From contig JAZUMV010000001.1 of assembly GCA_045603785.1 (NCBI GenBank), positions 9,343-73,342 on the forward strand: a DNA stretch of 64,000 bases, given 5' to 3'. Origin of the DNA: Candidatus Nanosyncoccaceae bacterium. Its GTDB lineage: Bacteria; Patescibacteriota; Saccharimonadia; Saccharimonadales; Saccharimonadaceae. The notes under the pieces were generated by a model. The model was not told the origin of the DNA. It was given only the letters and a program-made list of their open reading frames with translations, and did not search any database. Of this stretch, positions 13,266 through 59,563 are shown piece after piece. Each line of letters starts with the position of its first letter. Within the stretch, counting starts at the first letter, position 1. The position numbers were made by a program, and so were the translations under genes.

Positions 13266-13910
13266 ATGAAGATTCTGGGTGGCTATAATCAGGAAAGGAT
13301 GCAGAATAAGCGTTCTCGCGCCGAGAAGTCGGCCGAGTCTGATTTTGCTGCCCAGAGTGTTCGCTCGAATAATTACCGTATTGGTCGTACGATGGCTGGC
13401 GATGCCAAGAAGGCGCTCGAAGCAAAACGACGCCGCGCGAATGACCAACGCAAACGCAAGATAAAGATGACGGCGGTCATTTCTGCAACCTGTTTAGTTG
13501 CCTTGATTGCTTTGTTCTCGGTAATTCATATTACGATGAAGCAGAAAGCTGAGCGCGAGTTGGCCGAGGCTGAGGCGGCGAAGGTTTTTGTGAAGGAACC
13601 GACCGTGCCTGTGGTTGATGAGAACGTTGGCAATAACATTAGCCAGCGTGTCAAAGATTTTGTTTACGATTTGGAGAATGATTTAGCGCAATATAATATC
13701 GGGATTGATCATGTTAGTTTACCGCTCCAAAAAGCGCGCGAGTTAAGGGTGTTTATCATTGGGCGAAGCGAGTATTACAAGATGTCGCTTGATCGCGGTA
13801 GTGCTGTTCAGGCAGAAGATTTAATGCGTATGATGAAGTATTTGGACGAGGAAGAGGTTGAACCTGAGTATGTCGACTTGCGAGTTGCCGGGAAGGCATA
13901 TTATAAGTAA
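13266..13910 (+). CDS. Bitopic membrane protein, possibly FtsQ/DivIB-like (C-terminal domain only)
   Basis: Basic N-terminus and one TM (VISATCLVALIALFSVIHI). The C-terminus ...LRVFIIGRSEYYKMSLDRG...EYVDLRVAGKAYYK resembles the FtsQ end motif (yvDlR). The match is weak and rests on memory only. Confidence 0.35.
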   Translation: MKILGGYNQERMQNKRSRAEKSAESDFAAQSVRSNNYRIGRTMAGDAKKALEAKRRRANDQRKRKIKMTAVISATCLVALIALFSVIHITMKQKAERELAEAEAAKVFVKEPTVPVVDENVGNNISQRVKDFVYDLENDLAQYNIGIDHVSLPLQKARELRVFIIGRSEYYKMSLDRGSAVQAEDLMRMMKYLDEEEVEPEYVDLRVAGKAYYK

Positions 13911-13975
13911 GTTTTATTGGCTTTCTCTTGGCTCCGCTTCGCTCTTGACGCTAAGAGAAAGCTAACAAAACTTAC
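13907..13975 (+). repeat. Hairpin H1: 23-bp stem closing the conserved 22-nt core GCTCCGCTTCGCTCTTGACGCT (13931-13952)
   Basis: 5' arm gtaagttttattggctttctctt pairs with 3' arm aagagaaagctaacaaaacttac (one A-C mismatch, one G-T pair). The stop codon of the preceding CDS lies in the 5' arm. Confidence 0.85.
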
Positions 13976-14073
13976 ATCAAAGATTCTAGTAGTTAGGGAA
14001 GGGCGTAGCGCCCTATTTTATTTGGTGAGATTTTCTTAAGAGCAAATATAGAGCAGTATGGTGCAGGTGGGAA

Positions 14074-14143
14074 GGTCCTAACTTCCTGAGTCTAACAGCG
14101 TCAAGAGCGAAGCGGAGCTGTTAGGCTCAGTGGAGTTAGGACC
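14074..14143 (-). repeat. Hairpin H2: interrupted ~22-bp stem closing AGCGTCAAGAGCGAAGCGGAGC (14097-14118), the exact reverse complement of the H1 core
   Basis: 5' arm ggtcctaacttcctgagtctaac pairs with 3' arm gttaggctcagtggagttaggacc. The core is 22/22 identical to H1 in inverted orientation. Confidence 0.85.
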
Positions 14144-14168
14144 TAACTCCCCCTATCTGCACTACTAT

Positions 14169-14190
14169 GTTCGGTTTTTGTTCGGTTTTT
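14169..14190 (+). repeat. Tandem 11-nt repeat GTTCGGTTTTT x2
   Basis: gttcggttttt occurs at 14169-14179 and 14180-14190, exact copies. Confidence 0.7.
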
Positions 14191-14243
14191 CCGAGAGCGA
14201 TTCGTAGCGAGAAGAGGGGGTAGTCTGATTTGGGCCGTCAAAA

Positions 14244-14941
14244 ACAGGGGTAAAATCGTTTTTGATAAGGGTAGGGCCAGGGTAGTGTGAAAAGCCGAAT
14301 TTTGGGGGTTTTCACGGCGTGAAAACTGTCTGAAATGTGGAAAAATATGTCATAATATAGGAATTTACAGGGGTCGTTGCGGTTAGGTATTGTGGATCTG
14401 TCAAATTAAACCACTCCCCCAAGGTGTTATTTCGGTAGGGGGCGCATAATTTTACAACATTTATGCGTATATTCGAGCAACTTATTATGGTCAAACAAGT
14501 ATATATACATAACGACATTAGTATTTTGATCTATTTATGTAGATAGAAGTGCCGTGTTTATGTGTATTTAACAGATGAGTTTTATTATTTAGATGATTGT
14601 CTATTCATCCTGGGTTCTAATACTGTATAGTCGTAAAATATACATTGTGCGACATTCAAAATATGGACAAAAGACGATTGCTCATACGTCTAAGTTGGCC
14701 TAGTTTTTGGCCGCCTCGCGGATATTTTCTCGTATTTGCCCTGTCCTTGCGCTTCTATGAGTTTCTACGCCCGATTTCGATTCCATATACTATTTATGTT
14801 TATATTCGCATTATGGCGCGATTTGTAAGCTTGATGTTTTTGCGGTTCAGTCAAGGATTTCCGCAAAAAAATAACAGAGGTAGAACAGGGGTGAGAATAG
14901 GGCGAAAATATCTGGATAGTTACAGGGGTAGAACAGGGGTG
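14244..14941 (+). repeat. Iteron-like direct repeats ACAGGGGT (5 exact copies plus 1 variant), all on the same strand
   Basis: Exact 8-mers at 14244, 14367, 14885, 14922 and 14933; variant ACAGAGGT at 14874. Two 20-mers ACAGRGGTAGAACAGGGGTG lie at 14874-14893 and 14922-14941. They flank an AT-rich stretch (~14440-14660, about 28-30% GC in two hand-counted 60-nt lines). Confidence 0.7.
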
Positions 14942-15083
14942 GCAAAGGGAAGATTTCTGCTCTTCCCCTTCCCTATGACCTCTGTTTGTAAGCTGTTAAT
15001 TATTTTTTCAAAAAAAATAAGCGTCGGTAAAACCGGCGCTCGAAATTAGAAAAGGAAATGATAGAAATAATAATGTAAAACTG

Positions 15084-16781: not shown

Positions 16782-19571
16782 CTATTTGGCGTTTTTGTTC
16801 TGATTGTTATTATGCTTGCGGTTATTGCGATTGTTGTTCCTGTTGCGCGAATTATTGCCTTGCTGAGGCTTCTTGTCTGGGGCGGAAGTAATAACTAGCT
16901 TTTCCTTAGTGTCGATTTCTGGCTCTTTTTCGCCTTTAATGTTTGGGCTTGCTATTGCGGCTTTCTCTGCAAAGAGCTTTCCTAGGTTGCGGAGGCCGTT
17001 GCCGGCATTTTCTTCTTCGCCCTGAGCAGCATTAGGAGAGATCTTTTGCTTGCGGAACTCTTGCTGCGGAGTTGGCTGGAAGGCGAAAACCGGCTTGGAC
17101 GGCTTTGGCGCGGCTTGCATCTGGGCACCGCGTTCGCCTGCGGCGCGACCAGAGTTGGATAGATCTTCCTTAAACTTATCTGCGGCACCGATGTTGTCCG
17201 CAATGAGCTTTTCGACTTCTTCCTTAGACTTAGCATAGGTATTACGAGAGTGTTCAATAATCTGTGGCGTAAGGTCGTTCGGTGGTTTTGGAATTGAAAG
17301 AGTGGTTGCGGAGAATGCATTAGCCTTTTCGCCGTTGATAATCATGGAGATGACAAAGTGGCGGTTATTGAGGTTGAGAAGGTCCTGCGCCTCAAAGATT
17401 GGCTCGAACTGTTTAGCGAGTACTGGGGCGTCGTCGGCGGAAACGCGGAAGCTGATAGTGGTACCAACGTTACCAAAGACTGCGTCACGAACGCTATCCG
17501 TCATCTGGCTCGTATACTGGTTCGCGACAGTTAGATTAAGACCGTATTTACGAGCCTCAGAAAGAATGACCGAGAAAGAATCGGTAGCGAAGTTTTGGAA
17601 CTCATCCACATAGAGATAGAATGGGCGACGATCTTCGACACGTTCGATATCTGAGCGGGACATAGCAGCGAGCTGAACCTTGGTAACCAAGAAGGAGCCG
17701 AGGAGGCCAGCGTTATCTTCGCCGATAAGACCTTTAGAAAGGTTAACGACGAGAATCTTGCCTTCGTCCATAATCTTGCGAATATTGAAGCTAGATTTTG
17801 GCTGGCCAATAATATTACGAACGATCGGGTTTGCCGTGAAGGCACCGACCTTGTTAAGAACAGGGGCGACAGATTCGGTAACCTGTTTATCGCTCCAGGA
17901 ACCGAACTCTTTCTTCCAGAACTGAAGAACTGTAACATCCGTACAATAAGTGAGGGTTTCCTTGCGGAAGTCTGCGTCGGTGAGCATGCGGGAAATATCC
18001 AAAAGTGTCGAATTTGGACGATCTAGCAATGCGAGCAAAGTGTAGCGCAAGATGTGCTCAAGACGAGGACCCCAAGAGTCGCCGAACATGCGCTTCAAAA
18101 CACCGATAACCTCAGAAGAAATATTTGGCTTACGGGCTGGATTATCTACCTCGAGTGGGTTAAAAGCCATCGGATATTGCGTATCGGCTGGGTTGAAATA
18201 GACAACATCCTTGATACGGGATTCGGGAATAAAGCGGAGGTTATCCATCGCGAGGTCGCCGTGTGGATCGATAATACAATAACCTTGGTTATGGAAAATA
18301 TCCGAGAGGCCGAAGAGGGTTAAAAGGCCTGACTTACCAGAACCGGTCTGACCGATGATATAGATATGGCGAGAGCGGTCACGGCGATACATGCCGAACT
18401 GGTTTTTGATGCCGCGGAAATCCGTAAGGCCGAAGGCAGAAATGTTCTCATCGATGGCTGGATTGCCGGTCATGAGCGGAAGCTTTGAGGGTGGCTCAGC
18501 AGTTTTACTCGAGGCCCAAACGATGTTTGGTGTTTCAACGCTGGCGTGAGGCAAGTGGTAGACGCTCGCGAGCTCAGAGACATTCAAGACGAAGCCATCA
18601 TCTGCAAACTGGCGTTCCTTGTATTTGTTGAGTTCGTTTTTATCGAAGGTAGCCTTGGTCATTTTAAAGCCGTTGAGAGCAGTAGAGTTGTACTGTTTGA
18701 AAGTACCAACGAGAGCCTGCATATTGAGCTTGGCGTCGATTTCTTTTTCGCCAACATAAACCAAGCGAATCTTGACCTCGTAGCCAAGTTTATCACTTTT
18801 CTCTTGCGCCTTCGAAACGCGGAGCTTATCGCGTTCGCTAAGCTCTTTCTTTACATCTTTATTGAGCTCCTCCGGCTGTTTCCACAGTGCTTCGCCGAGA
18901 CTCTTCAAAAAGTCCATGCCAAAGGATAGTTTCTTGCCGTCTTTGACGCTCTTAATCCAATCTTCGCTCTTTTTGCGCCAGTCGTCGGCGATTGGGCGAG
19001 TGAGGATCTGAATCCACATCTCTTCTCCTCCAGTAGGATTAAGCTTGGCGAGAGTTGCGGTAACACCTGCGAGCGGATCAACCTCGAAGCTGTCGAAGGT
19101 CTTAATTGGCAAGGCTTGGTCGTCAGTTAAGACAATTTCGGTGCTGTAATTGACTGGATATTTTTCGCGGCGATCGACATAGTCTTCGTTCATACGATAG
19201 ATCTGCACGCTTGGATACTGCGCATAGATCTGGCCTTCAACAAAGGACTGGAAGATTTTTGGAACCCAAACGAAGAAGCGGATCTGATTGCCAGTTGATG
19301 CAATTTCGAAGGAGAGGTGCTCCTGAACGCCGCCGGTGTTTTTAAGTTCGTTGGCATCACGCAAAATACCATGTAGGGACATGAACATTTGCTCAGCACT
19401 AAGTTCGTTTTTGTCGTTGTCTTTCGGAATTTCAAGCATCAAAAGTACGCTATCGACATTAAGAACTTTCATGCGATTGAGTTTGCGATAATTGCGTACG
19501 GTTAGGACCGCCAAAAGAGTCACGATTGGAATCCAAACGATTGGCTTAAAAAGAAAGGACAAAAGATTCAT
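16782..19571 (-). CDS. TraD/VirD4/TraG-like (type IV coupling protein family) P-loop ATPase with an N-terminal membrane anchor and a basic Asn-rich tail
   Basis: N-terminal TM is IVWIPIVTLLAVLTV. Walker A is IIGQTGSGKSG and Walker B is FYLYVDEFQNF, followed by ARKYGLNLTVANQY. The C-terminus is NNSRNRNNNRNNRKHNNNQNKNAK. Confidence 0.7.
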   Translation of the reverse strand: MNLLSFLFKPIVWIPIVTLLAVLTVRNYRKLNRMKVLNVDSVLLMLEIPKDNDKNELSAEQMFMSLHGILRDANELKNTGGVQEHLSFEIASTGNQIRFFVWVPKIFQSFVEGQIYAQYPSVQIYRMNEDYVDRREKYPVNYSTEIVLTDDQALPIKTFDSFEVDPLAGVTATLAKLNPTGGEEMWIQILTRPIADDWRKKSEDWIKSVKDGKKLSFGMDFLKSLGEALWKQPEELNKDVKKELSERDKLRVSKAQEKSDKLGYEVKIRLVYVGEKEIDAKLNMQALVGTFKQYNSTALNGFKMTKATFDKNELNKYKERQFADDGFVLNVSELASVYHLPHASVETPNIVWASSKTAEPPSKLPLMTGNPAIDENISAFGLTDFRGIKNQFGMYRRDRSRHIYIIGQTGSGKSGLLTLFGLSDIFHNQGYCIIDPHGDLAMDNLRFIPESRIKDVVYFNPADTQYPMAFNPLEVDNPARKPNISSEVIGVLKRMFGDSWGPRLEHILRYTLLALLDRPNSTLLDISRMLTDADFRKETLTYCTDVTVLQFWKKEFGSWSDKQVTESVAPVLNKVGAFTANPIVRNIIGQPKSSFNIRKIMDEGKILVVNLSKGLIGEDNAGLLGSFLVTKVQLAAMSRSDIERVEDRRPFYLYVDEFQNFATDSFSVILSEARKYGLNLTVANQYTSQMTDSVRDAVFGNVGTTISFRVSADDAPVLAKQFEPIFEAQDLLNLNNRHFVISMIINGEKANAFSATTLSIPKPPNDLTPQIIEHSRNTYAKSKEEVEKLIADNIGAADKFKEDLSNSGRAAGERGAQMQAAPKPSKPVFAFQPTPQQEFRKQKISPNAAQGEEENAGNGLRNLGKLFAEKAAIASPNIKGEKEPEIDTKEKLVITSAPDKKPQQGNNSRNRNNNRNNRKHNNNQNKNAK

Positions 19572-21870: not shown

Positions 21871-21975
21871 GGTTATATAGCTATTATATCAAATAGTCGC
21901 GTTCGTTTTTTGTGAGGCTTTTAGACATTAGACGCCTAGTATTGAATAATCCCAGAACTGAAGTTCTGGGATTAT

Positions 21976-22101
21976 TCATTTTTTCTTGTCTCGTATTACG
22001 GCTTTAATGATTGCGATTATTATGCCAGCTATAAAGACATAAAATAGTATCTTTCCTGCCACTTGGCCCATATCCCAAGCCGTTGGGCTAATGTCTCTCA
22101 T
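21976..22101 (-). CDS. Possible 41-aa single-TM peptide
   Basis: MRDISPTAWDMGQVAGKILFYVFIAGIIIAIIKAVIRDKKK, preceded by GGGAGG with a 7-nt spacer. Short, so uncertain. Confidence 0.3.
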   Translation of the reverse strand: MRDISPTAWDMGQVAGKILFYVFIAGIIIAIIKAVIRDKKK

Positions 22102-44921: not shown

Positions 44922-44950
44922 TTGAAATGTTGAGATGAATAGCTTAGTAT
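44922..44950 (+). promoter_or_regulatory. Promoter-like TTGAAA-17-TAGTAT
   Basis: TTGAAA 44922-44927, 17-nt spacer, TAGTAT 44945-44950. Confidence 0.4.
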
Positions 44951-44956
44951 AAGAGA

Positions 44957-45401
44957 TGTATACGAAATCTCGTATAGGACATTAGGAGTTTACGCTAGCT
45001 GGCTGCAACTTCGACATCTAAGCTTATGCACAACCCGGCAATTCCAGGCATATTTGAGTTCGAACCTATCCTTAATATGGGCACGCCTGCCGAGTAGTGG
45101 CGAGCGAAAAAGTAGGCTTTTATAGCCAAGTGCTCAGGCGAATACCGAAATTCAGGCTACAGTGAAAATCGAGTTCTTTCAATTTGGCCACGCCACGGGT
45201 GGCCACCTTTCTGGCGGCCAATGTTGGAAATCTATGAGCTTTTCTCTTGGGTAAGAGAAAGCTATCGATCAACCTCTTGGTCATAGAATCGTCCCTTGTG
45301 GGACACATTTCCAAAAGCATCCAGTCACCACCAAATTTAATGTCCAAACCTAAGCTAGCTAGCATTGCTCCCCCGCCCCCGGCAACAGTCGGGGGCTTTT
45401 T
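44957..45401 (+). ncRNA. Candidate ~445-nt noncoding transcript (unclassified)
   Basis: Bounded by the 44922 promoter-like element and a strong terminator (gcccccg-gcaacagt-cgggggc plus ttttt, 45375-45401). No plus-strand ORF of 60 aa or more. Contains hairpins tggccac/gtggcca and the core-less stem at 45237-45263. Confidence 0.4.
45237..45263 (+). repeat. Core-less paralog of the hairpin H1 stem (agcttttctctt-GGGT-aagagaaagct)
   Basis: It shares gcttt(t)ctcttg and aagagaaagcta with the inner stem of H1 (13919-13964). The loop is 4 nt instead of the 22-nt core. Confidence 0.6.
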
Positions 45402-45409
45402 CATGGTTC

Positions 45410-45488
45410 CTCGTTAGCTGTTTTAGTCTCACTCCTTAGCTCCACTTCGTTCTTGACGCTAAGGAGTAAGACTAAAACGGCTAACGAG
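45410..45488 (+). repeat. Hairpin H3: 29-bp stem closing core GCTCCACTTCGTTCTTGACGCT (45439-45460)
   Basis: 5' arm ctcgttagctgttttagtctcactcctta pairs with 3' arm taaggagtaagactaaaacggctaacgag (one G-T pair, one C-A mismatch). Confidence 0.85.
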
Positions 45489-45570
45489 ATGATCTATCTA
45501 AAACTAACCTCTGATCGGGCATTAATTATAGGCTTGGGCTTTGAGCTAAAGAATGACTATGATATTTTTT

Positions 45571-45649
45571 GCTAATTGCAACTTGACTTTATCTCTCAGC
45601 GTCAAGAACGTAGTGGAGCTGAGAGATAAAGCTCAAGCTTGCAATTAGC
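45571..45649 (-). repeat. Hairpin H4: interrupted ~21-bp stem closing AGCGTCAAGAACGTAGTGGAGC (45598-45619), the inverted core (21/22 versus H3)
   Basis: 5' arm gctaattgcaacttgactttatctctc pairs with 3' arm gagagataaagctcaagcttgcaattagc (11 bp, internal loop, 10 bp). Confidence 0.85.
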
Positions 45650-45715
45650 TTATTACGATATTATAGTTTCCATTACGAAGCATTCGCTTTGAACTTTACA
45701 AGGGAGGTTTTATGC

Positions 45716-46438
45716 ATGGAATTATATTTTCTCGGACGCGGTAGCGCCTTCTTTACTGAGGAAGGTAATACCTCGGCGTTCTTTATCGAGAAAGAGGCTA
45801 TGTTTCTGATCGATTGCGGTGAGTCGGTTTTTAAGAAGATTCGGGAAGCTCGTCTGCTAGAATTGGCTCAGATTAAGGAGCTGTATATCTTCATTACTCA
45901 CATGCATGACGATCATGTCGGCAGTCTCGGCAGTCTTGTATCTTACTGTCGGTTTGGTCTTCCAGAAGGAAAGGAAATTAGGTGTCATCTCGTTTGCGCT
46001 CCGGCGCTCGAGACCTTGCTCTATAACAAGGTTTATGGTGCGGGATGTGCGGCGCATTGCGATTTTATTACTGCCGAGGCTTTGGACGGTCAGTTCAGAT
46101 ATTTCCGGAGCATGAGGTATATTCGCACGATTCATCAACCGCATTTCCCCGCTTTCTCGATCGAGTTCAATACTAATGTTGGCAAGGTTTTCTACTCTGG
46201 CGACACTCAGGATGTTGATATGGTTGAGGCCTATGCGAAGCAGGATGATATCTCTCGGCTTTATCTCGAGGTTTGCTCCGAAAGATATCCGGACAATGTC
46301 CATCTGCCTCTTGAAGATCTGGATCGTATTATTCCGATGGGACTCCGCTACAAAACTTATCTAATGCACTTCGATAACTATAAATGTATCGAGCGTGCGA
46401 AGAAGCTCGGCTTTCAGATTGTTGAGCCAATTCACTAA
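45716..46438 (+). CDS. MBL-fold metallo-hydrolase
   Basis: Start at MELYFLGRGSAF after GGGAGG. The HxHxDH motif is ITHMHDDHVGS. The substrate class cannot be assigned. Confidence 0.7.
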   Translation: MELYFLGRGSAFFTEEGNTSAFFIEKEAMFLIDCGESVFKKIREARLLELAQIKELYIFITHMHDDHVGSLGSLVSYCRFGLPEGKEIRCHLVCAPALETLLYNKVYGAGCAAHCDFITAEALDGQFRYFRSMRYIRTIHQPHFPAFSIEFNTNVGKVFYSGDTQDVDMVEAYAKQDDISRLYLEVCSERYPDNVHLPLEDLDRIIPMGLRYKTYLMHFDNYKCIERAKKLGFQIVEPIH

Positions 46439-46446
46439 GCAAATAT

Positions 46447-46475
46447 CCCCCGTTTTGCCAACGGGGGTATTTTTA
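46447..46475 (+). terminator. Intrinsic terminator; sequence twin of 29432-29457
   Basis: cccccg-ttttgccaa-cggggg followed by tattttt. Confidence 0.75.
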
Positions 46476-46492
46476 ATATAATCATAAGTAGG

Positions 46493-47257
46493 ATGGCTAG
46501 GAAAAGTGCGCAGAAGCAAGATCGAAAAGTTAACAAGATTTTAATCGCCTTTTGTGGCGGTTTCTTTTTAGTTTGTTTGTTGATTGGCTTGTATTTGGCG
46601 AGCTATTACCGGGCTGGAGATGTTGCATTTAATAGTTTAATCTCAAACACTATTGTTTCTGTCGAGAAATATGATGACGAGATTTGGTTTACGAATACGG
46701 AAGAAGAATCGCATGATTTGCTGGTATTTTACCCTGGTGCAAGAGTAGACTACAGGGCTTATGCGCCGCTTATGGGGCGTCTAGCGAAGAATGGCTTGGA
46801 CTGCGTGATTATAAAAATGCCGTTGAACTTTGCAATTCTTGAGCAAAATGCGTTTGATAAGGTTACGGATAGGCTTGGCGAGGGACATAGGCTATACACG
46901 AGGCTGTATATCGGTGGTCATTCGATGGGTGGCGCAATGGCGGCGAGTTATGTTGCGGAGCATCCTAATCAAATTGAGGGCTTAGTGATGCTTGGCGCTT
47001 ATTCTGCTAAGAAGTTACCCGAAGAGCTGAAGACGTTAGAGATATACGGCTCGGAAGATAAGGTTATAAACCGCAAAAAGCTGGAAGAAAATACTAAGTA
47101 TTTACCCTCGGGAGCGATTGTTTACGAGATTCCTGGTGGCAATCATGCGCAATTCGGGGATTATGGTAAGCAAAACGGGGATGGCGAGGCTGCGATTAGT
47201 TCTGAAGAACAGTGGGATATTACCGCGAGATATATTCTTGAGTGGGCAAATTTGTAA
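46493..47257 (+). CDS. Membrane-anchored alpha/beta-fold hydrolase
   Basis: N-terminal TM is ILIAFCGGFFLVCLLIGLYLA. The nucleophile elbow is IGGHSMGG, and GGNHAQF lies near the C-terminus. Confidence 0.7.
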   Translation: MARKSAQKQDRKVNKILIAFCGGFFLVCLLIGLYLASYYRAGDVAFNSLISNTIVSVEKYDDEIWFTNTEEESHDLLVFYPGARVDYRAYAPLMGRLAKNGLDCVIIKMPLNFAILEQNAFDKVTDRLGEGHRLYTRLYIGGHSMGGAMAASYVAEHPNQIEGLVMLGAYSAKKLPEELKTLEIYGSEDKVINRKKLEENTKYLPSGAIVYEIPGGNHAQFGDYGKQNGDGEAAISSEEQWDITARYILEWANL

Positions 47258-57709: not shown

Positions 57710-59563
57710 TTAGTCCTTCTTGGTTAATGCTTCAGTATTGGCGATTAGCCTTTGGCGGAAGCCTTCGCGAGCGGCGTCGGCGTTATTATTGTCACCCTTC
57801 CAAGCATTTAATGCTGGATCTTGCAGAGCGCGAGCGAAGCTGAAAGTGACTGGCCATGGGAACGGGCCATTGTTTGTGACTTCCTGGAGATTCTCAGTTG
57901 CTTGCTCGACGCTTTGACCACCGCTTAGGAAGACGACGCCCGCAAGTTTTTCTGGGACATGCTGTTTGAGAACATTGGCGGTAGCTTTACCGACTTCTTG
58001 TGGCGTAGACTGAACTGCTTGCTTTTTGCCGGCTAGAACCATATTAACCTTAAGAATGCAGCCTTCGAGATCGATAGCCTTCTTGCTGAGCTCTTCAAAT
58101 AGAACATCAAGAATTTTGCTGGTCGTGTCGATATTCTGCTGAAGCGTGTAATCTCCGTCGTAAACCAATTCTGGTTCAACGATTGGAACGATATTGGCGT
58201 TCTGACAATCTAGGGCGTACTGCGCGAGAATTTCGGCGTTCTTGCGAATTGCCATATCGCTTGGGCTATGGTCGGTTAACTCAAAAGCGGCACGCCACTT
58301 AGCGAAGCGAGCGCCCATATTGTAGTATTCTTTGAGTCTGTCTGGGAGCCCATCGAGGCCTTGAGTATATTTTTCATCGGAGTTTTCGAAGTTGACGAGG
58401 CCTTGGTCTACCTTGATGCCGGCGATGATGCCTTTGTTTCGGAGGTAGGAAACGAAATCTTTGCCATCGTCTGCTTTCTGACGAGCGGTTTCATCGAAGA
58501 GGATAACGCCACTAACGTATTTTTCGATGTCTGGGGTTGTGAAGAAGAGGTTGCGATAGTCGCGGCGATGCTGCTCATCGTCCGGAATATTCATGCTCTC
58601 GAATTTCTTGTGAATAGAGCCACCAGATTCATCGGCGGCGAGAATGCCCTTGTTTGGTGCAAGGAGTTTCTTTGCATTTTCTTCGATTTCGGTCATTTTG
58701 CGTTGTTCCTCGTGTTTTTCTACTCTTTCAATGAGATATTCTTCGTCGATAACTTCCTGGTCGAGCTTGGAAAGATTGCTGGTGCTGCCAAGGCGAGATT
58801 CCTCGACATTCTTGCGAGCGAGCATCAAGCAGCGGCTGACGGTTTTGCCCTTGAGGATTGCGCCAAAAACAGTCGCGGCGACGGTAAGGTTAATGCTGAG
58901 GCGTGTAAGTAAATCTTTTGAGTTAACATTAAGCGGAGCTGGAATACGACGGCCTTGGAAGATGATGTATTTGTCTGTAATCGTGACGGGATTCTTGGCT
59001 GGATAGTTAAGCTTAGTGTCCGTCAGAATGAGACTGGCGCGCTGCAAAAGTTTTTGCATATATTTGGCGTTTTGATTGCTGCGCTTGTTGATAAAGATTG
59101 CGAGGCGAGTCTTCGTGTTGAGCGTGAGATACTCAAGGATCTTATTGCCAAGATTCGGCGTAATGTTGGCACTGCGATCGATATATAGCCAATCTGGGGC
59201 AGAGATTGGATTGGACCAAGCAGATTCGCGATAAGTGCTTGGGGTCAAGAACGAAATGCTATCGTCGTGGCAAAGGATGTAACGATAGTCGATTTGTGAT
59301 TCGTTGGCAAAGAATTGGCCTTCGATGAAGCGGGCTGGCGTATTGACGATTTGTGCATCAATACCAAAGCGTGTTAGGACTTCAAGACTAATGCTGGCGC
59401 CGCCATAGATTGAGGCGCGTGAATAGTATTTGCGCGAAGAATGATTAAATGGGATGTCTAGCCAGCTTACGCCATTCTGGTCTAGCTCGAATTTATTGAG
59501 ACGGTTATCCATGCGTAGATAGACGTCTTTTGTAATGTTGCCCACGATTAAGACTTTTGCCAT
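57710..59563 (-). CDS. Fusion protein: N-terminal PfkB/ribokinase-like domain plus C-terminal class I fructose-bisphosphate aldolase
   Basis: The C-terminal ~330 aa carry GILAADESGGS, GIKVDQG and the Schiff-base region CILKVNMV. The N-terminal ~290 aa carry VLIVGNITKDVY and GGASISLEVLTRFG (PfkB signature-1-like). The DTxGAGD motif appears replaced by LTVAATVFGA. Confidence 0.75.
   Translation of the reverse strand: MAKVLIVGNITKDVYLRMDNRLNKFELDQNGVSWLDIPFNHSSRKYYSRASIYGGASISLEVLTRFGIDAQIVNTPARFIEGQFFANESQIDYRYILCHDDSISFLTPSTYRESAWSNPISAPDWLYIDRSANITPNLGNKILEYLTLNTKTRLAIFINKRSNQNAKYMQKLLQRASLILTDTKLNYPAKNPVTITDKYIIFQGRRIPAPLNVNSKDLLTRLSINLTVAATVFGAILKGKTVSRCLMLARKNVEESRLGSTSNLSKLDQEVIDEEYLIERVEKHEEQRKMTEIEENAKKLLAPNKGILAADESGGSIHKKFESMNIPDDEQHRRDYRNLFFTTPDIEKYVSGVILFDETARQKADDGKDFVSYLRNKGIIAGIKVDQGLVNFENSDEKYTQGLDGLPDRLKEYYNMGARFAKWRAAFELTDHSPSDMAIRKNAEILAQYALDCQNANIVPIVEPELVYDGDYTLQQNIDTTSKILDVLFEELSKKAIDLEGCILKVNMVLAGKKQAVQSTPQEVGKATANVLKQHVPEKLAGVVFLSGGQSVEQATENLQEVTNNGPFPWPVTFSFARALQDPALNAWKGDNNNADAAREGFRQRLIANTEALTKKD

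Follow-up and report, generated by a model that had tools for sequence, protein, structure and literature searches.

The window, by which we mean the whole 64-kb stretch of DNA analyzed here, is an ordinary Candidatus Saccharibacteria (CPR) chromosome. The best named homologues of its PGK are found in Saccharibacteria, and its genes are housekeeping genes (PGK, pyruvate kinase, GluRS, UvrA, UvrB, topoisomerase I, Mur ligases, and pilins); no transposase, recombinase, HUH nuclease, or reverse transcriptase, and no Y1 transposase (RAYT), is encoded within the 64 kb. GC skew is positive across the whole window, and therefore the two loci described below lie on one replichore, with the + strand as the leading strand. 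At locus 2, a strong intrinsic terminator (45375–45401, + strand) belongs to an upstream conserved noncoding transcription unit, is kept in the relatives L046 and L047, and ends 8 nt before hairpin H3 (45410–45488), as the initial annotation of this DNA had noted. A spacer (45489–45570) and a second hairpin, H4 (45571–45649), follow, and then comes an MBL-fold hydrolase gene (45716–46438, + strand; 240 aa), with a ribosome-binding site, AAGGGAGG, at 45700–45707. The predicted sigma-70 promoter of this gene (45639–45667, + strand; TTGCAA-17-TATAGT) has its −35 box inside the H4 right arm, so that transcription is predicted to start beyond H4. Between H4 and the ATG there are 66 nt rather than the 67 nt first counted, and the stretch 45716–47257, which had been taken as a single MBL gene, holds in addition a separate alpha/beta hydrolase gene (46493–47257).

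Both hairpins of locus 2 lie where they were originally placed. H3 consists of a left arm (45410–45440), a loop that is the core (45441–45457, TCCACTTCGTTCTTGAC), and a right arm (45458–45488); the 31-nt arms form 29 Watson-Crick pairs, one G.T pair, and one A.C mismatch. H4 has its left arm at 45571–45600, its loop at 45601–45617 (GTCAAGAACGTAGTGGA, the reverse complement of TCCACTACGTTCTTGAC), and its right arm at 45618–45649, the outer part of which, TTGCAATTAGC, contains the −35 box. Its stem, at first described as 11 + 10 bp, is longer and comprises 30 pairs (14 + 5 + 11) with two bulged C residues in the 3′ arm. Locus 1, 31 kb away, is built like locus 2 around a common core, in keeping with the initial description. 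There, H1 (13907–13975; loop 13933–13949, TCCGCTTCGCTCTTGAC) and H2 (14073–14144; loop 14100–14116, GTCAAGAGCGAAGCGGA, which includes GCGAAGC) carry 17-nt loops that are reverse complements of each other, within an inverted core that matches perfectly over 22 nt. The last base of the final codon and the TAA stop of a gene for a 214-aa protein form the beginning of the H1 left arm, and H1 is positioned in the 3′ UTR ahead of an intrinsic terminator in the locus-1 spacer (14000–14020, + strand; AGGGCGTAGCGCCCT plus a T-run), with H2 after it. Three of the four hairpins occupy the interval from a terminator to the next promoter, a region in which one expects little transcription. The H3–H4 spacer can be aligned in part to the sequence of L046 (which lacks H3) and is nonhomologous to the locus-1 spacer.

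The two modules share a strict geometry. In each of them a core in the + orientation is followed by an inverted one (head-to-head), with core-to-core distances of 167 and 160 nt at the two loci, and each of the four loops is exactly 17 nt long and is closed by GC...GC. H1–H4 are the only long hairpins in the 64-kb window with exactly 17 nt between the arms. A degenerate form of the core matches exactly at three of these sites and with one mismatch at H4; allowing up to three mismatches gives five matches in the window versus 0.55 expected, the fifth of which (59244–59260) lies within an aldolase coding sequence, is consistent with chance, and was set aside. Folded as single-stranded DNA, H3 has a minimum free energy of −28.9/−29.1 kcal/mol (z −8.8/−10.1), and over H1–H4 and both strands z ranges from −5.7 to −10.1, with 0/200 shuffles folding as well. 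The stems had been called unrelated in sequence, which holds for most of their length; their innermost 8–9 bp, however, share a pyrimidine-rich ...YAGC / GCTR... pattern. A separate 9-bp perfect palindrome (GGAGTTAGG-A-CCTAACTCC) at 14132–14150 overlaps the outer right arm of H2, so that CCTAACTYCC occurs three times around this hairpin, a repetition that suggests nested rounds of inverted duplication.

What all copies have in common is a 23-nt tip only, (A/G)GC-TCCRCTNCGYTCTTGAC-GCT. Just three of its core positions vary among six copies, namely R..Y (G-C or A-T) and N; the previously noticed difference between the loci, two transitions that give G..C at locus 1 and A..T at locus 2, was confirmed across the copies, as was the extra change in H4. 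One strand of the core carries the heptamer GCGAAGC, ACGAAGT, ACGTAGT, or ACGCAGT, that is, RCGNAGY. Here R and Y vary together (G...C to A...T) as the outer pair of a 2-bp mini-stem, and N, which on the GNA strand of the six copies is A, A, A, T, C, and C, is the middle base in its 3-nt loop. The tip strand that reads GTCAAGA-RCGNAGY-GGA thus includes a d(GCGNAGC)-type mini-hairpin. With any base at N, d(GCGNAGC) folds into a DNA mini-hairpin of extraordinary stability that contains a sheared G-A pair, and such GNA mini-hairpins have been described in phage G4 single-strand priming sites, RSF1010 ssiA, and N4 promoters (PMC13037366). The RNA version on the opposite strand, RCUNCGY, has no special stability and makes only a weak 2-bp triloop. 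The concerted core variants may therefore amount to one compensatory change within a motif that is meaningful as DNA, a pattern that is suggestive only, because it is one event; the mini-hairpin in the tip points to recognition as single-stranded or cruciform DNA. The core offers no promoter, since none of the four arms holds a −10 box suitably spaced from the TTGAC of the core.

To place the hairpins in the context of related genomes, we fetched orthologous loci using the MBL protein (locus 2) and PGK (locus 1) as anchors. H4 is present in L045 (98% MBL identity) and in L046 (76%), the latter of which has nothing at the place of H3, and the sequence of the MBL promoter is identical in both. 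L047 (61%) has neither hairpin and conserves the terminator, the promoter, and the gene; its terminator is followed after ≈10 nt by the promoter TTGACA-18-TAATAT, the positional homologue of that in the window. The locus-1 module is missing from L128, L132, and L135 (82–86% PGK identity), in which ≈45 to 65 nt separate the stop codon from a conserved ATGTTCGGTTTTTGTTCGG versus ≈255 nt in the window. Searching the window and its relatives with a covariance model of the six hairpins turned up no additional copy, so the copies counted are four in 64 kb of the window and none in 69 kb of relatives. Because relatives differ in which of H1–H4 they carry and the database scans described below are negative, the sequence comparison indicates that the hairpin element is young, was gained piecemeal, and is restricted to a narrow lineage of Saccharibacteria, although at H3 it could be that L046 lost the hairpin rather than that the window lineage gained it. 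The core loop is conserved between orthologues and paralogues, whereas the adjacent spacers have diverged beyond alignment.

Two further observations concern palindromes in these genomes. First, short-read contigs from close relatives stop inside the hairpins: one (L134, 4160–4166) ends 7 nt into the H1 left arm and another (L045, 1–16) begins inside the H4 left arm, and thus palindromes break short-read metagenome assemblies exactly at the arms. An assembly or adapter artifact, in which a missed hairpin adapter leaves an insert, the adapter, and the inverted insert, was rejected as the source of the hairpins themselves, as the arms are only ≈30 bp long and H4 is found in two independent metagenome assemblies. 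Second, L047 harbors a lineage-specific hairpin at 2017–2117 with 39-nt arms, perfectly paired over their innermost 19 bp, around a 23-nt loop, TCCGTCGTGAAAATGACTTATCT, upstream of an MscS-like gene; neither the window nor L046 has it at the corresponding site, and its presence suggests that this clade has gained long palindromes more than once.

The origin of the stems bears directly on how their pairing should be read. The initial annotation had taken the unrelated stems around one core as the covariation expected of a selected structure, and indeed 96.9% of cells are paired in the paralogous stems and 12/16 pairs are changed on both sides. However, the host-side arm is on the TCC side of the core in H1, H3, and H4 (3/3), so the GAC-side arm looks like an inverted duplicate, and because one arm looks like an inverted copy of the other, this paralogous "covariation" is automatic and provides no evidence of selection. 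It is mainly by position that the TCC-side arms appear to be native. The inner left arm of H1, GGCTTTCTCTT, matches GGCTTTC(A/G)CTT at the same place in relatives (p ≈0.02–0.06); the −35 box in the H4 right arm is positionally homologous to the TTGACA of L047; and the H3 left arm adjoins the terminator and loosely resembles the L046 sequence there. Overall, the similarity of the arms to the preinsertion sequence of relatives is weak (p 0.02–0.45) and mostly not significant. With L046 taken as the empty site for H3, deleting the core plus the right arm scores best (63.5 versus 59 and 50.5), a margin that is not decisive.

In the comparison of orthologues, by contrast, pairing does turn out to be maintained. 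The H4 region differs between the window and L046 at 14/79 positions, about as much as the neighboring promoter region does, and these include eight differences in 25 scored stem pairs, all 25 of which remain standard; three pairs are changed on both sides and two have become G.T. In the three orthologues of H4, 64/64 cells are standard pairs. When random substitutions were simulated, pairing was maintained to this degree in 2/200,000 trials, and when transitions alone were allowed, in 1.5%, so that, as judged from these alignments, H4 pairing has been maintained since the split of the window lineage from L046. Selection for a hairpin or cruciform and template-switch correction of the palindrome would each explain this. 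Mismatches read on the + strand are more often G.T (7) than A.C (2), an excess that a C-to-T mutation bias on the leading strand can explain.

Database searches failed to connect the element to a described family. The 44 matches listed for the core GCTCCNCTNCGNTCTTGACGC in GTDB representative genomes and the 66 listed in JGI metagenome contigs are all chance occurrences with no flanking arms, as are, in IMG/VR, the 14 matches listed for the shorter pattern GCTCCNCTNCGNTCTTGAC and all those for the pattern TCCNCTNCGNTCTTGAC among the 120 loci listed; the matches listed from GTDB, JGI, and IMG/VR are ordinary sequence and mostly G+C-rich. BLAST of the core and the module against plasmids and phages gave chance-level matches or none, and the initial concern that the cores might be fragments of a larger known repeat or IS end found no support in the GTDB, JGI, plasmid, and phage searches. 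At the gathering score, Rfam 15 matches in the window are two tRNAs only; in E-value mode the hairpins draw only generic microRNA-precursor models for long hairpins, at 20 to 40 bits against thresholds of 60 to 150, and H1–H4 thus match no curated structured-RNA family (riboswitch, leader, sRNA, or ribozyme) in that release. A scan for intrinsic terminators recovers 45375–45401 and 14000–14020 and none of H1–H4, whose 17-nt loops and lack of a T-run differ from the 3- to 8-nt loop and subsequent T-run that a terminator has in addition to its G+C-rich stem.

We also compared the hairpins with the defining features of known classes of repeats. A MITE was rejected: inverted cores are present, yet the interiors of the two loci are nonhomologous, which means that the module is not a 190-bp MITE, no direct duplication flanks the cores, and the L046 copy is a single unit. 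Integron attC sites have conserved R″/R′ core sites at the stem base, a variable center, and an adjacent integrase and cassette array; in H1–H4 this conservation is reversed, with a conserved center and a variable base, no integrase is encoded in the window, and an attC identity was likewise rejected. The conserved stem of REP/BIME/REPIN sequences is lacking, as the stems share only the weak YAGC/GCTR inner pattern and it is the loop that is conserved. Viewed as an inverton, the element is seen in one orientation in three assemblies, with no recombinase encoded within the window; viewed as a rolling-circle, HUH, or ssi signal, it has a conserved loop with the GNA mini-hairpin motif and no cognate gene in the window.

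Taking these data together, we tentatively favor, at slightly less than even confidence, the interpretation that H1–H4 are copies of a lineage-restricted, DNA-level palindromic insertion element with a conserved tip and a stem copied from the host flank, and on this best reading they are not a conserved riboregulator or a switch for the hydrolase gene. A tip would be inserted, or copied from a nearby tip, at an intergenic site beside an AGC; its ...GCT, as the new 3′ end, would then snap back onto the AGC and copy the host flank, yielding a long palindrome with the tip as its loop. The GAC-side arm would in this way be an inverted copy, 26 to 31 bp long, of the chromosomal TCC-side arm. The palindromes may subsequently be kept perfect by template-switch correction within the palindrome or by hairpin or cruciform recognition by a putative trans-acting protein. 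Bacteria are known to carry out such snap-back or template-switch synthesis at quasi-palindromes. Effects on neighboring genes would be side effects of where the arms happen to lie, H1 enclosing a stop codon and H4 the MBL −35 box. By itself, an insertion element leaves unexplained the head-to-head arrangement at ≈160 nt and the locus-specific core variants; local copying of the tip from a neighbor, or occasional core–core recombination, would explain both the pairs and their shared variants, and homogenization or inversion between the two cores of a locus is possible. Counted against an insertion element are that only four copies are known and that the window encodes no mobility enzyme.

A bolder form of this proposal, which we consider unlikely, is that the hairpins represent a new kind of mobile DNA, a 23-nt "hairpin-tip" recognized through d(RCGNAGY) as single-stranded or cruciform DNA, which inserts beside AGC and acquires its stem by snap-back synthesis. 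Within this bolder form, the loop would be common to all copies and the stem unique to each, and the head-to-head pairs might serve to signal priming or nicking on a specific strand.

An alternative is that the inverted cores are crossover sites at which a recombinase encoded elsewhere flips the intervening 131- to 144-bp segment and keeps the cores identical. The core inverted repeats measure 22 bp (100% match) and 23 to 29 bp (90–96%), with 144 and 131 nt between them, the two loci share a core consensus, and the core variant is the same within each locus; an orientation-dependent intrinsic terminator is present in the locus-1 spacer and a perfect TATAAT, on the minus strand, in the locus-2 spacer. 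The repeats and their spacing resemble invertons such as the Mpi-dependent promoter switches of Bacteroides fragilis, where ≈20-bp consensus inverted repeats flank 130 to 200 bp at several loci of one genome. In known invertons, however, the repeats do not sit within long local palindromes, the promoter is normally part of the segment that flips, and read data show both orientations. Here the MBL promoter lies outside the invertible segment, the orientation of H4 is the same in all three assemblies (window, L046, and L045), the L046 core stands single with no partner, and the position of the core at the tip of a 26- to 31-bp palindrome goes unexplained. Recombinase sites, moreover, normally have conserved arms and a variable center, the reverse of H1–H4, and with no recombinase gene in the window we regard inversion as distinctly improbable.

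We assign a similarly low likelihood to the hairpins being a pure mutational by-product, in which a local seed grows arms by quasi-palindrome template switching and neither mobility nor function is involved. The L047 hairpin with its unrelated loop shows that long palindromes arise independently of the core, and nested palindromes flank H2. H1–H4 in general have counterparts in snap-back and quasi-palindrome template-switch rearrangements (Ripley-type mutations; Salmonella tandem inversion duplications), which likewise place an inverted copy of the adjacent sequence around a short asymmetric center and turn imperfect palindromes into perfect ones. Those rearrangements, though, are sporadic and share no center, whereas H1–H4 have the same 23-nt center at four sites. 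The recurrence of this tip at two loci 31 kb apart in unrelated surroundings, and its conservation next to spacers diverged beyond alignment, argue against a by-product.

Very unlikely, in our estimation, is that the hairpins are functional single-stranded DNA signals, that is, ssi-like sites at which a primase or HUH enzyme would prime or nick once the hairpin is extruded or the DNA becomes single-stranded. A conserved loop on varying stems is the signature of hairpin-nicked or hairpin-primed origins, the two units of a module lie on opposite strands, and a head-to-head pair could serve both strands, like ssiA and ssiB in RSF1010 oriV, which also face each other on opposite strands. The TCTTGAC of the core resembles the CTTGAT nick motif of pC194/phiX174-type origins, and we counted it in favor of such signals. 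The loop has the GNA mini-hairpin, d(C-GNA-G), that is part of the hairpin determinant in the G4 complementary-strand origin, ssiA, and the N4 early promoters (PMC13037366). The known signals, however, lie in plasmid or phage origins beside their cognate primase or Rep genes and have conserved stems, whereas H1–H4 are chromosomal, flanked by ordinary housekeeping genes, and dispensable in close relatives, which live without them; they have no known partner enzyme, neither locus adjoins a gene for a Rep, relaxase, or primase, and nothing similar appears among the matches listed from plasmids, phages, and viral contigs.

No more probable is a structured RNA, in which the hairpins would act in transcripts, through loop–loop kissing or protein binding, to terminate, stabilize, or gate the MBL operon. 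The hairpins are very stable, their pairing is maintained, the two loops of each module are complementary, H1 is in a 3′ UTR ahead of its terminator, and G.U-compatible mismatches are commoner on the + strand, the sense strand for the genes on either side. H2 and H3, on the other hand, come after terminators, no T-run follows any of the four stems, and Rfam offers only microRNA-precursor models far below their thresholds; the loop occurs in both orientations, so that two RNAs would show different sequences, and RCUNCGY would add only its weak triloop. The initial annotation had proposed that the module gates the MBL gene. Such gating at the RNA level is unlikely because H4 lies upstream of the predicted transcription start; H3 sits between terminator and promoter, and relatives that lack H3 (L046) or both hairpins (L047) keep the same gene and promoter.

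To return to the favored insertion element, its nearest counterpart in behavior among known systems is the REP/BIME/REPIN group of Enterobacteria and Pseudomonas. These are short intergenic palindromes, often just after stop codons, that occur in head-to-head pairs with a spacer, vary in presence between close relatives, and act as DNA with incidental effects on mRNA ends. They are mobilized by RAYT, a Y1 HUH transposase, and reach tens to hundreds of copies per genome. H1–H4 are not REP/BIME/REPIN sequences proper because the stem is not conserved: in REP the stem is conserved and the loop variable, whereas H1–H4 have a conserved loop and, at each site, a different and apparently flank-derived stem; no GTAG motif or RAYT gene was seen, and the copy number is so far very low. 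In H1–H4 we consequently see what looks like a small palindromic insertion of an undescribed kind. Few mobile elements have been recognized in the tiny, gene-dense genomes of Saccharibacteria and other CPR bacteria, and to our knowledge little has been learned of how their intergenic DNA turns over. A repeat whose loop stays fixed while its stem is drawn from the flank reverses the usual logic of REP, MITE, and attC; if confirmed as a family, it would point to an unrecognized DNA transaction, either tip-seeded snap-back synthesis or an enzyme that reads a GNA mini-hairpin. Hairpins that copy their flank can mimic covariation-supported RNA structures in comparative screens, and recognizing them prevents false riboregulator calls.

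Finally, this analysis brought to light several other features of the window. A 929-aa protein with a TrwB/VirD4-type coupling-protein ATPase domain is encoded at 16782–19571 (− strand), 2.6 kb from locus 1, and is probably unrelated to the hairpins because it is conserved in relatives that lack them. Just 5′ of H3 lies the ≈440-nt conserved noncoding transcription unit mentioned above (44922–45401, + strand; orthologues at L046 3985–4428 and L047 4012–4434), with a promoter (TTGAAA-17-TAGTAT), a closing helix (GGACATTAGG...TTTAATGTCC), and the strong terminator. It has no match in Rfam even at E ≤ 10, and among the 98 pairs that RNAalifold predicts from the three orthologues, 14 show compensatory changes; AGTAGTGGCGAGCGAAA and GACATCTAAG in this unit resemble 23S rRNA domain I motifs. 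The unit is a candidate new Saccharibacteria ncRNA. Beyond H2, a second conserved noncoding stretch (14145–15083), 3′ of the gene for the 214-aa protein and ≈0.9 to 1.3 kb long among genomes, has counterparts at L128 11727–12780, L132 3384–4688, and L135 3286–3658; it contains no ORF and no Rfam match, opens with TGTTCGGTTTTT repeated in tandem, and shares several conserved blocks with its counterparts. Between two minus-strand genes, at 21943–21978, lies a palindrome, perfect over 17 bp around a 2-nt center (TGAATAATCCCAGAACT AG AGTTCTGGGATTATTCA), that could be an operator or a bidirectional terminator.
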